DNA from: Holophagales bacterium
GTDB taxonomy: Bacteria; Acidobacteriota; Thermoanaerobaculia; Multivoradales; JAGPDF01
NCBI GenBank assembly: GCA_016699405.1
Contig: CP064972.1
Location: 2,696,165 to 2,760,164, forward strand
Direction: 5' to 3'
DNA length: 64,000 bases
In this document: piece by piece, positions 14,571 to 30,589 of the stretch
How positions within the stretch are numbered: the first letter of the stretch is position 1
Layout of the letters: each line of letters opens with the position of its first letter
The notes under the pieces: model-generated
Told to the model about the DNA's origin: nothing
Database searches by the model: none
Seen by the model: only the letters and a program-made list of their open reading frames with translations
Position numbers and translations under genes: made by a program

Positions 14571-15317
14571 TCAGTCCGCGGAAGCGATCCGCGGACGGGC
14601 GGCGATCCAGCTGAGCAGGAGTTCGCCGTCGGTGCGCCAGCCGCCGGAGAGCGGGTCGAGGCCGGCGGTCGCCAGGGAGAGCGGGCGCCAGCCGTCGAGT
14701 GCCGCGGTGGCCGCGCGTGCCCGGTCGAGGTCGACCTCGACGGCGCGCGTGTCGAGGCGCAAGCCGGCGCGCAGCGCCTTGAGGGCGCATTCCTTGCCGC
14801 TCCAGGCGAGGTTTGCACCCAGCGCCTGGTCCGCCACCGGCCACCTCGCCAGGGCGTCCTGCTCGCCGGGTGTCAGGTAGTCGCGCACGAAAGCGTCGCT
14901 TCGTGGCTCGATCCACTCGAGGTCGCAGCCGAGCGCCAGCCGGCCGGCGCCGACGGCGGCGAGCCCCCAGCCGTTGCGGTGACTGAGCGTCAGCGTGAGC
15001 TCGCCGGGGGAGCCGTCGAGGAAGAGCTCCGGCGCGCCGTCGGGCGCCGCGACGACGGCGAGCGCGGCCGGCTCGGGAAGGCGCTCGCCGGGGCGGAGGC
15101 GAGACGATCGCGCGAGGTAAGCCTGGCGGGCCGTCCAGCGGCCGAGACGCCAATCGGCTCGCCGTGCCGGCAGACGAAGTGCGCCGAGCGTCTGGCGCTC
15201 GCCGTCGCTCAGCCAGTCCTCGCCTTCCGGCAGCTCCGCCGCCGCGACGAGCGCGAGGTCGATCTCCGCCGCACTCTCCGGCGGCACGGGAGCGATGGGC
15301 ACGACCCAGTGCTTCAC
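14571..15317 (-). CDS. Sfp-type 4'-phosphopantetheinyl transferase
   Basis: GCDLEWIEP matches the GxDxE motif and WSGKECALKALRAG matches W(S/T)xKE(A/S)xxKA. It is ~248 aa from a GTG start and lies 17 nt downstream of the ACC-like gene. The long ORF extension to 16040 is an antisense artefact. Confidence 0.75.
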   Translation of the reverse strand: MKHWVVPIAPVPPESAAEIDLALVAAAELPEGEDWLSDGERQTLGALRLPARRADWRLGRWTARQAYLARSSRLRPGERLPEPAALAVVAAPDGAPELFLDGSPGELTLTLSHRNGWGLAAVGAGRLALGCDLEWIEPRSDAFVRDYLTPGEQDALARWPVADQALGANLAWSGKECALKALRAGLRLDTRAVEVDLDRARAATAALDGWRPLSLATAGLDPLSGGWRTDGELLLSWIAARPRIASAD

Positions 15318-15334
15318 CCGCGCTCCCGTCGCCT

Positions 15335-18300
15335 TCAGCTCGTCGCCTCGCCCGCGCGCGCCATGCCGCGTTCGAGCGCCTCGATCAGCCACGGCCGGAG
15401 TCGTGCCGCCGGGATGATCTCGTGCACCGATCCGACGCGCTGGGCGCGCGAGACGTCGTGCACGCGGTCGTACTCGGCGGCAACCTCGCCGAGCTTCTCG
15501 GAACGCACGATCTCGGTCGCCTCGGCGAGGCGCGCCCGCACCGCGGCGCGGTCCGGGCAGGCCGGATCGGCGAGCGCCTTCTCGAGCTCGGCGACCCGCG
15601 GGTCCTTCTTGGTGCGCTTGTCGACCTCCCGGGCGAAGACCACCGCGGCGGCCGGCGCGCCGCCGATGACCGAGGCGTAGCTGCCCTCGAGCGCTGCCAC
15701 CTGCATGTTGTCGTGCAGCGCGCCGGAGAAGACGACGAAAGCGCCGCCGTGGTAGCGCGAGACGACGACGAAGACGATCGGCCCCTTGAAGTTGACCACG
15801 GCGCGGCCGATCTCCGCTCCGTATTCGAGCTGGCGGTTGCGCATCGACTCCGGCGAGCCGTCGAAGCCGGAGAGGTTCGCCACGACGACGAGCGGCCGCG
15901 AGCCGCTCGCCGCGTTGATCGCCCGGGCGATCTTGCGCGACGCCTGCGGGAAGAGCGTGCCCGACGTCCACTGGTCCGGGCCGTAGGCGGGGACCCAGCC
16001 GAGGCGGGGGAGCGGTCGCGATTCGAAGCCGAGCAGACACACCGGCTGGCCGCCCAGGTGAGCATCCCAGACGACGCCGGTCTCGGCGTCGCGCATGGCG
16101 AACCAGCGCTCGAGCGGCTCGTGGTCCTGGTCGGTGACGGCACGCATCACGCGGCGGATGTCGAAGGGGCGCTTGCGGCCCGGGTTCGCCGCGTCGGAGA
16201 AGATCTCGCCGACGGTGACGAACTCGCCGCCGTGCGGGAACGGGCGCACGTCGCGATCGCGCGGATCGCTGCTCGCCGCCGGCCGCGGGAAGCGCTCGCC
16301 GGGTGCGACGTAGGCGTGTTCGTAGTGGGCCATCAGGATGCGGCAGGCCTCGCCCAGGTCACGGGCGAAGTACTGCGCCTGGCCGTTCGGCCCCATGATC
16401 CGCTCGTAGCCGCCGATTCCCCAGTTGTCCTCGGCGGAGACGCCGCCGGAGTAGTCGAGCGCCTGCTTGCCGGTGAGCACCATGGCGCCGTCGGGCGTCA
16501 TCACCAGGATCCCGCGCGTGTGCATGAGCATCGTCGCTTCGGCGTTCCAGTACGGCTGGGCGCCGACGTTGATGCCGGGGACGAGGATGTTGACCTCGCC
16601 GCCGCCCTGGGTGAACTCGATCAGCCGTCGCAAGGTGAGGGCGATCCAGTCCATGTTCTCCGTCCCGCTGTCCATGGCGATCTTCGCGCCCGCCGAGAGC
16701 GCCACCCACTCGAGCGGCACGCCCATGCGCTGCGCGAGGTCGAGGGCGGCGTTGATGCGCCGGCACTCCGGCTCCGCGAGGGCTCCGAGCCCGCGGCTGC
16801 CGTCGCCGAGCACGATGACGCGCGCCATCCCCTCCGGGTAGCGCGCGGTGAAGCTGCGGATCACCCCGACGACCACGTTCGCGGTGTTGCCACCGGCAGG
16901 CCGCTCCACGGCGACCAGGTCGCCGCTCGCGTCGAGATCGTGTTCGACGAACTTGCCCGGCGGGATCCCGGAGCTCGCCTCTTCCGCGGGCGGAGCGAGC
17001 AGGCGCAGGACCTCGTAGGCGTAGGGAACGCCCCGACGCTTCAGCTCGACGACCTTCTGCGCGTATTCGCCGAGCGGCGCGAGCGGCTCGACGGAGGGGC
17101 GCCGGAAGCGCACCACCTGGTCGCCTTCGCCCGGACGCTGGACTTCGAGAACCCAGTCGGCCGGCGCTTCGGCGGCCGCCCCGGGGGCGCGGAACTGCAC
17201 CACGACCTTCTCGAGACCGAGGCCCGCGGCGAACGGCGCCAGGCGATGGACGATGGCGCGCAGGTCGTCGCGCCGCATCAGCGTGGCCGGCCAGAGGTAG
17301 AGCAGCACGCGGTTCCACGGCAGGCGCTGGGAGGCGCTGCGGCGCGACTGGGCGCGGCGGATTCCGGCGAGGGCTTCGTGGTAGGCCCGCTCGAGTTGCG
17401 GCAGGGCGACGACCCGGCCGCGCGCGTCGCGCAGCGCCGTCATGTCGCGCACTTCGGCGAGGGCGAAGAAGCGCTCGTCCTTCGGATTGCGATGGGCGAC
17501 GCCGCGGAAGAGGCGAACCTCGCTCGACGACTCGAGTTGCTCGAGGGCGAAGTTGCGCAGCCGCCAGACCTGCAGCCGCTCGGCGATCATCGGGTGGAGG
17601 CCGCGCGAGGGGCGATCCTCGGCGAGCTTGCCGTTCTCGTTGCGGCGGAAGGTGAAGAGGCGCGAGTGCCCGGGCGAAGCGAACGAGACGGCGAGGCGCC
17701 AGAGGTCGTTCGGGAGGCGGTGCTCGTCGAGCCAGGTGGCGATCGCCGCAGCGAGGGCGTCGTCGTCCGCGGTGGTCGGCTCACCCCAGAGGAAGAGATC
17801 GACGACGATCTGCAGACCGCGGGCCGTGGCCTGCTCGGCGAGGATCAGGGCGCGATCGAGCGAACCGCGCAGGTCGGCGGCCGGCCCGTGCGTGGCGACG
17901 ACGTGGATGCGGCCGATGCGGTGGTCGTAGTCGGCCGTCGCCGACTCCGAGGGCGGCCCGACGGAGGTCAACACTTCGCCGAGCGGTCGGACGCGGTAGA
18001 AGCGACGGAGCATGACCTCGAGCATCTCGGCCCGCAGGCGCGGGCTGGCGTCGGCCAGGCGCAGGGCGAGCCAGGCGTGCAACGACTGCGGACACTCGAC
18101 GAGAGCGCGGCGCGCCGCGCCGTGATGCCCGTCGTCGGCCGAGGCGAGCGTGGCGAGGTCGGCGCCGGCGCGCGCCAGCAGGCGCTCCCGCTCAGCGAGC
18201 AGCAGGGGCCGGTCGAAGAGGCGGTAGGAGAGCTCGCGCGCCGAGTCGAAGACCGCGGGCTCACGGTCGCGGCTCTCGGCGATCAGCCGGTCGAGCAGCG

Positions 18301-28872: not shown

Positions 28873-28903
28873 GAAAGCCTCGGGGCCTGGAGTCGAATGG
28901 TGA

Positions 28904-30589
28904 TCAGACGGCAGCGCCGTCGCGGTTGCGTCCGTAAAGTGCGTCGGCGGCGAGGTCGAGATCGTCGAGCAGCCCGGCCTGGGCTGCCAGGATCCTGGGA
29001 AGGCCGAGCGCGTGAGCGAAGGCCGGCACCTCGTCACCGCCGACGCCGCCGGCACCGACGGACCAGCGCAGCCCCTCGGAGACCACCTTGAGTGCCGCCT
29101 CGCGGGCGAAGGCGCGGGCCAGGGCGGCGAGGGGAGCGGCGCCGAGGCGCCGGTCGCCCTTTTCGGCGAGCGTCCCCGCGGCGGCGCGCGCGGCGCGCCG
29201 GGCGAAGGCCGCGGCGGACTCGGCCCAGGCGGTGAGCTCGCCGACGCGGAAGAGGACGTGCTGGTGGCGAGTCAGACGGGCGACACGCGCGCGCTCGTAC
29301 AATTCGGCGAGCGCGTGCAGGGCGAGCGCGGCGGTCGCTGCCCCGACCTCGGGGTGACGCGATGCCAGCTCTTCGGCGCGACGCGCCTCGGCGTGGAAGT
29401 AGTCGCCCCGTGTCTTGAGGTGGAGCTGCCAGCGGTCGCGCGCGATGGTCATCTCGAGGATCTCCGAGGTGCCCTCGTAGATCGTCGTGATGCGCACGTC
29501 GCGCTTGATCTTCTCGACCAGGTACTCCCGCGTGTAGCCGTAGCCGCCGAGCGCCTGGATGGCGGCTTCGGCGGCGGCGTTTCCGGCCTCGCTCGCCATG
29601 TACTTGGCGATCGCTCCCTCGGTGTTGAGCGTCCCCTCGCCGAGGTCGATCCGCTCGGCGGTCTCCTCGATGTAGGCGCGGGCGGCCTCGAGCCGTGCGG
29701 CGTGCGGCACGATCAGCTTGTGGGTGTAGCCCTGCTTCTCGGAGAGCGGCGCGCCGCCCTGGATGCGTTCGACCGAGTAGGGGATCGCCTTGTCGAGCGC
29801 CGCCCACCCGGCGCCGAGCCCGAAGGCGGCGACCATCAAGCGGGTATAGCCGAAGACCACCTGCGCCTGCAGCAGACCCTGGCCCTCGTCGCCGCCAACG
29901 AGGCGGTCGGCCTCGACGACCACGCCGTCGAGCATCACCGCCGCGGTGTTGCTGGCGCGGATGCCGTGCTTGTCCTCGGGCTTGCCGTGCGAAAGACCCG
30001 GTGTGCCCTTGTCGACGACGAACCAGGTGGGACCGCCGGGGGTCTGGGCGAGGATGCTGTAGAGGTCGGCGTAGCCGCCGTTGCTGATCCACTGCTTCGC
30101 GCCGTCGATCCGGTAGGCGACGATCCGGCCGTCCTGCTCGATCCGTTGCGCGGTGGTGCGCAAGGCGCCGAGGTCGCTGCCGGCCTCGGGCTCGGTGGCG
30201 CCGTAGGCCATCAGCAGGCCGTGTTCGGCGATGGCGCCGAGGAAGCGCTGCTTCTGCTCCTCGGTGCCGCCGAAGTGGATCGGGTCGCTGCCGAGGAAGG
30301 TGGCGAGCACGCCGGTGGCGACGCCGAGATCGATCCGTGCCAGCGTCTCGCAGACGCGGTAGACGTCGAAAGCGCCGCCGCCCATGCCGCCGTAGGCTTC
30401 GGGAATGAACAGCAGCGAGATCCCGAGCTCGCCGCACATGCGACGCACGATCGGTTCGGGAAACTCGTCGCGGGCGTCGAGGTCGAGGAGCGCCGCGTCG
30501 GGAAGCTCCTCGCGCGCGAAGTCGCGCAGCGCTTCGAGGGTGAGATCGAGCGTTTCACGGTCGAGTCCGGCTGGCTGGGCGGCGGGCAT
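28904..30589 (-). CDS. Acyl-CoA dehydrogenase with a C-terminal extension (FadE-like, ~560 aa)
   Basis: ACAD N, middle and C domains: [61 protein letters not shown]. About 170 extra C-terminal residues. First gene of the PKS operon. Confidence 0.85.

Follow-up and report, generated by a model that had tools for sequence, protein, structure and literature searches.

A Type R PfaA-like synthase cassette from a Holophagales bacterium with predicted threonine-linked carrier domains and a half carboxylase

The stretch of DNA analysed here, called the window below, comprises 64,000 nt of contig CP064972.1 (assembly GCA_016699405.1) from a Holophagales bacterium, has a GC content of about 71% and carries on its minus strand four tightly packed genes that span positions 14571-30589 according to open reading frame (ORF) calls. 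These genes form a cassette that corresponds to the Type R PfaA-like secondary lipid synthases, a class catalogued in 2011. In their order of transcription they are:

28904-30589, minus strand: acyl-CoA dehydrogenase (ACAD), 561 aa, the first gene of the cassette
20221-28872, minus strand: PfaA-like iterative type-I polyketide synthase (PKS), 2883 aa
15335-20224, minus strand: protein resembling single-chain acetyl-CoA carboxylase (ACC), 1629 aa
14571-15317, minus strand: 4'-phosphopantetheinyl transferase (PPTase), 248 aa, with a GTG start, the last gene of the cassette

Read from the sequence, the stop codon of the ACAD gene lies 31 nt ahead of the PKS ATG, the PKS stop and the ACC start overlap in tcATGA, and 17 nt containing GGGAG separate the ACC stop from the GTG of the PPTase. 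A preliminary description of this DNA had counted 32 nt in the first gap and agrees on the other two junctions; its picture of four co-directional genes in a tight, self-contained operon is borne out, and the domains it named were all recovered, correctly assigned, with Pfam and NCBIfam. No release domain is encoded in the cassette. The synthase itself consists of the following domains:

27430-28854, minus strand: first ketosynthase (KS1), aa 7-481 (Pfam 7-420), Cys in DAACAS, His in EGHGTST, His in SNIGH
26164-27054, minus strand: acyltransferase (AT), aa 607-903, with GHSLGE and HAFH
24193-25605, minus strand: second ketosynthase (KS2), termed chain-length factor (CLF) in the Type R description, aa 1090-1560, Cys in NSACATT, His in SHETYTP, Lys/His in NTKGYTGH
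22840-23910, minus strand: three tandem acyl carrier protein (ACP) domains, aa 1655-1740, 1793-1878 and 1926-2011, three matches to Pfam PP-binding
21361-22032, minus strand: catalytic subdomain of the ketoreductase (KR), aa 2281-2504, nucleotide-binding motif TGAAGS, catalytic Tyr in DYAAAN
20296-21105, minus strand: dehydratase (DH) of the PKS-type double-hotdog fold, aa 2590-2859, PKS_DH_N/PS-DH, HxxxGxxxxP present as HRIDGTPVLPG

The triads of both ketosynthases, the GHSLGE of the AT and the HxxxGxxxxP motif of the DH are invariant in 19 orthologues from several phyla, and HAFH is the malonyl signature among the specificity motifs of acyltransferases. A chain-length factor has lost its active-site Cys, whereas the Cys-His-His of KS2 falls on the catalytic positions of FabF in an alignment; with a full triad, KS2 is, by its motifs, not a classical Cys-less CLF. 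The preliminary description had spoken of a "KS-prime": a ketosynthase does follow the AT, though the motifs mark it as catalytically complete rather than merely KS-like. In synthases of polyunsaturated fatty acids (PUFA), the ketosynthases of PfaA and PfaC work at different chain lengths, and by analogy the two KS domains here probably share out the elongation cycles. The N-terminal third of KS2 is divergent and includes a predicted helical insert (RERSRRERLEELRAL...AALEAEL) that does not align to FabF.

Type R was defined by Shulse and Allen (2011, PLoS One 6:e20146, PMC3098273) as a single pfaA homologue of the order KS-MAT-CLF-ACP(3-6)-KR, where MAT is a malonyl acyltransferase, followed by a downstream PPTase, and was reported from Koribacter, Solibacter, Elusimicrobium and Roseiflexus, the pfaA and pfaE homologues of Koribacter flanking an ACC gene. 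The same features are found here: Pfam places KS, AT, KS, three PP-binding domains and KR, plus a DH, in one polypeptide (orthologues carry 1-6 ACPs), the PPTase lies downstream at 14571-15317, and the ACC homologue sits between the two. Acidobacteria as hosts and an uncharacterised product complete the likeness, which is one of published architecture rather than of the Koribacter, Solibacter, Roseiflexus and Elusimicrobium sequences themselves. Type R was described without a DH and without an upstream ACAD, and its second ketosynthase was termed a CLF, whereas the cassette in the window has a conserved DH and ACAD, a KS2 with a full triad, ACPs with threonine at the attachment position and, in this lineage, an ACC that lacks its biotin carboxylase (BC).

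The related systems include the PfaA of PUFA synthases (pfaABCDE): TIGR02813 (PfaA) is the best NCBIfam match of the PKS, at 941.2 bits, below the cut-off of 1010.1. Both combine KS-MAT, tandem ACPs, KR and a PKS-type DH in one iterative polypeptide and have a dedicated Sfp-type PPTase (PfaE in the PUFA synthases). They differ, besides the sub-cut-off score, in the extra active KS between AT and ACPs, in the ACP motif (DTVKQAE here, DSIKRVE in PUFA synthases) and in the absence of PfaB, PfaC and PfaD. As the preliminary description had stated, these partners are missing: neither pfaB (AT), pfaC (KS-CLF-2xFabA-DH) nor pfaD, an enoyl reductase (ER) of the nitronate monooxygenase (NMO) type, was found in the window, where tblastn with NMO, KS, AT, KR and DH queries returned no other KS, AT, KR, DH or NMO-type ER. 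The enediyne PKSs (PKSE) and the heterocyst-glycolipid HglE-type PKSs (antiSMASH class hglE-KS), which resemble the window PKS in layout, are likewise iterative and PfaA-like (KS-AT-ACP-KR-DH), and a C-terminal PPTase occurs both in PKSE and in many relatives of the window PKS. These systems have no second KS, threonine ACPs, ACAD or ACC partner, and their products, a polyene and a glycolipid aglycone, cannot be transferred to the cassette. The Pks13-AccD4-FadD32 locus of mycolic acid synthesis shares the genetic linkage of a type-I PKS to an acyl-CoA carboxylase component; a condensation system of this kind was rejected on the NCBIfam Pks13 score (405 against a cut-off of 2100), the lack of a fatty acyl-AMP ligase or thioesterase (TE), the malonyl-type HAFH and the eukaryote-like carboxylase of the acetyl-CoA type. 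An operon of a type I fatty acid synthase with AcpS was ruled out by the domain order and the PfaA-type matches.

How widely the cassette occurs was surveyed by scanning one genome per species and then running tblastn with each part. About 30 loci from several phyla show this gene order, so that the arrangement is not due to chance. Full cassettes were found in the Acidobacteriota (Terriglobia, Vicinamibacteria, Holophagales and Thermoanaerobaculia), in the Actinomycetota (Acidimicrobiia, Microthrixaceae and Solirubrobacterales, and the cultured Actinoplanes sp. NPDC020271 and Mycobacterium sp. 852014-52450) and in other metagenome-assembled genomes (MAGs), labelled Myxococcales or delta-proteobacteria, with one that has a KSB1 isolate name and is titled Deferribacteres. 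Gene neighbourhoods show the order ACAD-PKS-ACC-PPTase in Terriglobia and a related arrangement in Thermoanaerobaculia. The PKS is 57-65% identical between phyla and 57-73% identical among orthologues overall, those from Terriglobia metagenomes being 61% identical with shared synteny, and in more than 20 loci the gene directly ahead of the PKS is an ACAD homologue of 50-76% identity. Three independent activated-sludge contigs carry the identical 1629-aa ACC ORF, each with the PKS upstream; the PPTase is complete on two of them and truncated on the third, where the contig ends. All-versus-all clustering of the flanking ORFs of 37 loci revealed no fifth conserved gene (TE, acyltransferase, ER or electron-transfer flavoprotein, ETF), only the four genes and antisense shadow ORFs. 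The synteny check proposed in the preliminary description thus finds the cassette conserved as a unit across phyla. In acidobacterial cassettes the PPTase gene is co-directional with the others; in most actinobacterial and some other copies (L058, L064, L065, L073, L082, L018, L062) it lies downstream of the ACC gene on the opposite strand, in convergent orientation.

The most unusual feature of the synthase lies in its carrier domains. Each of the three ACPs has the motif DLEADLG(I/V)DTVKQAE, with a Thr at the position of the canonical phosphopantetheinyl Ser; the PF00550 family has a Ser at the N-terminus of helix II, which is found in none of the three, the fold and the remaining motif being canonical. 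This Thr aligns with the phosphopantetheinyl Ser of every ACP matched in the Protein Data Bank (PDB), and in an AlphaFold2 (AF2) model (predicted local distance difference test, pLDDT, 89) Thr39 opens helix II, where the arm is canonically attached. No serine occurs anywhere in ACP2 or ACP3. The substitution, on which the preliminary description does not remark, extends well beyond this genome: Thr occupies the position in 96 of 96 ACP motif copies from cassette loci (the window and loci L002-L082), and an exhaustive HMMER search with KS2 and the ACPs yielded 1341 cluster representatives at E<=1e-30, the top 150 of which (32-71% identity) hold 416 motif copies with Thr and about 13 with Ser in an otherwise identical motif, one protein mixing both. 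In 31 representatives, exclusively Thr-type ACPs and a PPTase domain are found in the same polypeptide. With Thr at the attachment position and no Ser in two of the ACPs, the arm would have to be on threonine. The catalytic residues of the synthase are strongly constrained, no other carrier is encoded and a PPTase is always present, and we therefore consider it almost certain, as far as sequence can tell, that the phosphopantetheine arm is attached to Thr.

The partner enzyme is a PPTase of the Sfp/HetI type, matched by Pfam ACPS and NCBIfam HetI. Sfp-type enzymes are two-lobed proteins of about 230-250 aa with the motifs GxP, (V/I)SxSH, GxDxE and WxxKE(S/A)xxK, and the gene product has these features. 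GAPE, LSxSH (LSLSH), GCDLE and WSAKESALKA are conserved in 14 cassette PPTases, the last reading WSGKECALKA in the window protein. A profile of the PPTase matches the structures of AcpS (the best, E 4e-09), EntD and Sfp, and a PDB search with the single sequence gave no match. For relating PPTase residues to the Ser or Thr type of ACP, only one pure Ser-type fused PPTase was available.

The carboxylase in the cassette is equally unusual. The protein is laid out as a BC remnant, a BT domain, a biotin carboxyl carrier protein (BCCP) domain, a central domain and a carboxyltransferase (CT), of which the key parts are:

19475-20224, minus strand: degenerate half-BC, aa 1-250, with about 200 N-terminal BC residues gone and the catalytic motifs lost
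18878-19069, minus strand: BCCP (biotinyl) domain, aa 386-449, Lys418 in AMKM (codon 18971-18973), Pfam Biotin_lipoyl
15338-16924, minus strand: CT, aa 1101-1629, Pfam Carboxyl_trans

Pfam recognises Biotin_carb_C, Biotin_lipoyl, ACC_central and Carboxyl_trans, and CPSase_L_D2 only over profile positions 91-209; Biotin_carb_N (PF00289) has no match in the protein. The closest solved structures are yeast and human ACC, and among characterised bacterial proteins the nearest relative is SACE_4237 of Saccharopolyspora erythraea, a homodimeric single-chain acetyl-/propionyl-CoA carboxylase by which fatty acid synthesis is supplied with malonyl-CoA (Livieri et al. 2019, PMC6491548). With SACE_4237-type and eukaryotic ACCs (PDB 5CSL) the window protein shares the BC-BT-BCCP-central-CT organisation and end-to-end homology, and like them it holds a BCCP with a biotinyl-Lys, a central region and a CT in one chain; it differs in having no complete, competent BC, as Biotin_carb_N and the first half of the ATP-grasp fold are missing and the BC motifs are all substituted. 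Relative to the full-length proteins, the catalytic motifs, all intact in Terriglobia, have been replaced: RDC(T/S)xQRRxQK has become IDTTLAVDEVTV, GTVEFL has become WTVVFS, and EMNTRLQVEHPVTE has become LSCRRGLPRSYAAVDE (in the core, EMNTRLQVEH to LSCRRGLPRSY). Judged by these losses, the protein cannot be an autonomous carboxylase and would be a BCCP-CT enzyme unable to carboxylate its own biotin. The missing half of the BC was not found elsewhere in the window by tblastn. The label "BC-less" in the preliminary description is right in that no autonomous BC is left, and imprecise in that the C-terminal half of the BC fold persists.

Protein searches returned two tiers of relatives, about 35-40 clusters of some 1630 aa (1620-1670) that are 57-60% identical, all labelled ones being from Thermoanaerobaculia or Acidobacteriota, and many proteins of about 1870 aa from Terriglobia that share 48-52% identity and in which the BC is complete, Biotin_carb_N included. 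The identity to the window protein is 44-52% for full-length cassette ACCs and for stand-alone actinobacterial copies. Every contig in which the truncated form was seen is labelled Thermoanaerobaculia or unclassified Acidobacteriota, relatives in other classes and phyla having an intact BC, and the complete BC is the ancestral form of the cassette ACC. Aligned with full-length proteins, the truncated ones all start near the equivalent of BC residue 190-205, their starts differing by no more than about 10 residues. In the CT, 94% of the columns that are invariant among 30 full-length proteins are kept by the truncated group; the figure is 80% in the central region, 79% in BT and BCCP, and 37% in the BC remnant. 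The CT of the window protein shares 78% identity with truncated and 71% with full-length relatives (within the truncated group the range is 78-85%), and M417 and K418 are invariant in the nine truncated sequences aligned. An AF2 model of residues 1-470 has pLDDT values of 85-97 for residues 10-140 and superposes on the BC, BT and BCCP of methylcrotonyl-CoA carboxylase, propionyl-CoA carboxylase and ACC structures (TMq 0.67 to yeast ACC), and on this confidence and superposition the BC remnant is predicted to fold into a scaffold and not to be disordered. The idea that the truncation reflects an assembly artefact, a mis-called start or a pseudogene was rejected, since the upstream frame overlaps the DH of the PKS and is Arg/Pro junk, the starts are consistent, the same ORF occurs on three independent contigs and the CT is strongly conserved.

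The first gene of the cassette encodes an ACAD with three Pfam domains (Acyl-CoA_dh_N/M/1), an MCAD/Bcd-like core and the catalytic-Glu motif IYEGTSEI, which aligns with the catalytic region of 5lnx/MCAD; its best PDB matches are ACADs. It has a C-terminal extension of about 175-180 aa, of which only the first 35-50 residues align, to 2z1q and 3owa. Its length recalls the long forms of 577-656 aa (VLCAD, 2z1q, 3owa), and like VLCAD it combines three ACAD domains, a Glu in a YEG motif and a C-terminal extension. The wider family of the synthase offers a clue to its function: about 20 of the 150 representatives have an N-terminal NMO domain (PfaD/FabK-type ER) fused to them, including all-in-one ER(NMO)-KS-AT-KS-ACPn-KR-DH-PPTase proteins, which implies that enoyl reduction belongs to the chemistry of the family. 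Four genomic contexts of such relatives were examined (including P0167/L087, P0175/L084 and P0158/L085). In one, an ER-KS-AT-KS-ACP3-KR-DH-PPTase protein stands alone among housekeeping genes without an ACAD; in another, genes for a biotin ligase, a 1941-aa single-chain ACC and BioY come after that of an ER-fused protein, and an ACAD is missing here too. The other two are ER-less and PPTase-fused, one followed by BioY, BC, BCCP, an enoyl-CoA hydratase and a short-chain dehydrogenase/reductase, the other with none of these neighbours. A link of the family to biotin carboxylase machinery is thus recurrent. The ACAD is present only where no ER is fused and is absent from both ER-fused contexts, a complementary distribution that supports, without proving, a role of the ACAD at the enoyl step. 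The idea in the preliminary description that it supplies enoyl reduction or oxidation in trans is therefore plausible, with circumstantial support, and we think that the ACAD probably handles the enoyl step in the cassette.

Taken together, these observations lead us to favour, with fair though far from complete confidence, the reading of the four-gene Type R cassette as an iterative, malonyl-fed fatty-acyl synthase. The Sfp-type PPTase would turn the three tandem ACPs into their holo form with the arm on Thr, and the HAFH-type AT would load malonyl units. KS1 and KS2 would then perform iterative decarboxylative condensations, probably dividing the chain lengths between them as PfaA and PfaC do, and KR and DH would take each beta-keto group to the enoyl thioester. 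The ACAD would act on the alpha,beta bond, likely in place of the PfaD/FabK-type ER that is fused N-terminally in related synthases. Malonyl-CoA would be supplied by the ACC-derived protein, presumably a complete acetyl-CoA carboxylase of the SACE_4237 type in most lineages. In the Thermoanaerobaculia-type lineage, where the BC is truncated and dead while the biotinyl-Lys and the CT are constrained, the BCCP would have to receive its carboxyl group from a different enzyme, of which the housekeeping AccC is the simplest candidate, and the CT would then make malonyl-CoA. In E. coli-type ACCs a free BC charges the BCCP in trans as the normal arrangement, and by analogy charging in trans by a free BC is probably the simplest explanation here. 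The product would be a long-chain fatty-acyl or polyketide lipid.

Several observations weigh against this reading of a malonyl-fed fatty-acyl synthase. ACADs normally oxidise, and running one as a reductase needs a low-potential donor. The cassette contains no ETF genes, the two ER-less relatives also have no nearby ACAD, and the window has no accC. Trans-carboxylation by free AccC of a BCCP fused in a single-chain ACC is hypothetical. The carboxylase is also not always tied to the synthase: in one Thermoanaerobaculia-type MAG contig (L001, 2058-10001) the PKS and the truncated ACC stand apart, with an insertion of about 8 kb between them that holds Abi_C, PIN_12 and FGE-sulfatase genes, and in another MAG contig (L004, 1-18985) the truncated ACC is unlinked from PKS and PPTase, a Ser/Thr kinase-TPR gene lying about 3 kb upstream of it and a Phi_1-domain gene following directly downstream. 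E. coli ACP with the substitution S36T is not phosphopantetheinylated and is non-functional (PMC3340395), so that modification of Thr would need an adapted PPTase. Finally, a product or biochemistry for any member was not found in the literature searched, which most subscription journals lie outside, nor was a product for Type R or hglE-KS clusters in Acidobacteria.

The alternatives differ in which of these points they take up. That the Thr-type ACPs are not phosphopantetheinylated, being inactive or devoted to other chemistry while the PKS relies on an external Ser-ACP, would fit the behaviour of the E. coli mutant and the fact that phrase searches of the same literature found no Thr-linked phosphopantetheine; Thr is nevertheless conserved in hundreds of tandem ACP copies over several phyla, exactly at the N-terminus of helix II in the AF2 model, Ser takes its place in a few members whose motif is otherwise the same, one protein having both, a PPTase is always alongside or fused in cis, and the cassette has no discrete ACP gene, which makes this alternative quite improbable. 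A conjugated polyene or a hydroxy or enoyl product made without enoyl reduction, as in enediyne PKSE, with the ACAD tailoring the starter or the finished chain, seems to us unlikely but worth keeping in mind. The PKS has no ER domain, the KS-AT-...-ACP-KR-DH(-PPTase) layout of its relatives recalls PKSE, and ACADs are dehydrogenases by habit, yet the fused PfaD/FabK-type ER of about 20 family representatives speaks for reduction, and a dedicated ACC suggests the bulk flux typical of a lipid.

For the truncated ACC two further readings arise. It could be a BC-independent biotin enzyme, either a transcarboxylase that would pass CO2 between acyl-CoAs, say from methylmalonyl-CoA to acetyl-CoA, and so spare ATP in a lineage with an anaerobe as its cultured member, or a malonyl-CoA decarboxylase. 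The loss of the BC catalytic residues and of some 200 N-terminal residues beside a strongly conserved biotinyl-Lys and CT would suit such an enzyme, as would the unlinked gene in L004 and the acceptance of both acetyl- and propionyl-CoA by SACE_4237, by which one CT site could serve both half-reactions. Known transcarboxylases and decarboxylases, however, use a second CT-type or membrane subunit, none of which is in the cassette, and the gene is still translationally coupled to the PKS in the window; we regard this option as a minority view. That the protein is a decaying relic, non-functional or a purely structural partner, is the least credible of the alternatives: the BC is clearly inactivated and synteny with the PKS has loosened in L001 and L004, but the CT retention and identity given above, a biotinyl-Lys that is invariant in every truncated sequence aligned, a full 1620-1670-aa frame kept in about 35 clusters only 57-60% identical overall, and a remnant BC that is predicted to be well folded all argue against decay. 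The preliminary description had seen in the locus an undescribed type of secondary lipid synthase, with the BC-less ACC as an integral new feature. The KS-AT-KS fusion, the ACAD and the ACC are indeed absent from canonical pfaABCDE clusters, the TIGR02813 score is below the cut-off and no product has been assigned. The architecture, however, is that of Type R, catalogued in 2011 together with the ACC gene of Koribacter; the cassette is widespread, and the loss of the BC was seen in Thermoanaerobaculia-type contigs only and does not belong to the system as such. The claim of novelty is thereby largely refuted, and we give it very little weight. What the preliminary description had named as counting against itself, the same architecture with a characterised product, was found in its first half: the architecture is known, an assigned product was not found in that literature.

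New with respect to the literature searched are the folded half-carboxylase with a dead BC, a KS2 that is catalytically complete by its motifs, the conserved ACAD partner and, above all, the family-wide Thr carriers. We speculate, more tentatively than for the cassette itself and aware that the odds are somewhat against so broad a claim, that the whole KS-AT-KS-ACPn-KR-DH family (more than 1300 representatives at E<=1e-30) uses Thr for phosphopantetheine and is served by a co-evolved PPTase alongside or in cis, and that the Thermoanaerobaculia-type lineage has in addition a BCCP-CT half carboxylase, charged in trans by a free BC or acting as an ATP-independent transcarboxylase. A family-wide switch from Ser to Thr contradicts the textbook rule for acyl and peptidyl carrier proteins and would define a new PPTase specificity, which matters for the engineering of carrier proteins and for annotation pipelines in which Ser is taken for granted. 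With its dead BC, the natural BCCP-CT protein lends itself to testing whether single-chain ACCs can be charged in trans or act as transcarboxylases. Abundant phyla of soil and sludge, among them Acidobacteriota, Actinomycetota and Myxococcota, commonly carry Type R cassettes, and cultured carriers such as Actinoplanes sp. NPDC020271 and Mycobacterium sp. 852014-52450 make it feasible to identify the lipid product. If no such reading holds, the locus is another member of a catalogued but unstudied class of gene clusters.

The cassette is flanked by housekeeping genes, an Iso_dh gene (isocitrate/isopropylmalate dehydrogenase) convergent with the PPTase and RarA/MgsA divergent from the ACAD; ffh, rimM, rplS and pyruvate kinase are also encoded in the window, and Rfam and tRNA scans of it were empty. 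A 753-aa ORF at 4416-6677 on the minus strand, between ffh and rimM-rplS, has a coding-like GC content at third codon positions (0.82) and no Pfam match at E<=1e-5. At 54402-55391 on the plus strand lies a regulator with WYL and helix-turn-helix domains, followed by a 1058-aa protein with repeated CarboxypepD_reg/SdrD_B-like domains (both within 54402-58855), and between 56 and 62 kb the GC content is about 0.66, compared with about 0.71 elsewhere. A deoxyhypusine-synthase-family gene at 12352-13335 on the minus strand is the second gene downstream of the cassette, with the convergent Iso_dh gene between it and the PPTase; the family is unusual in bacteria, though bacterial homologues are known.

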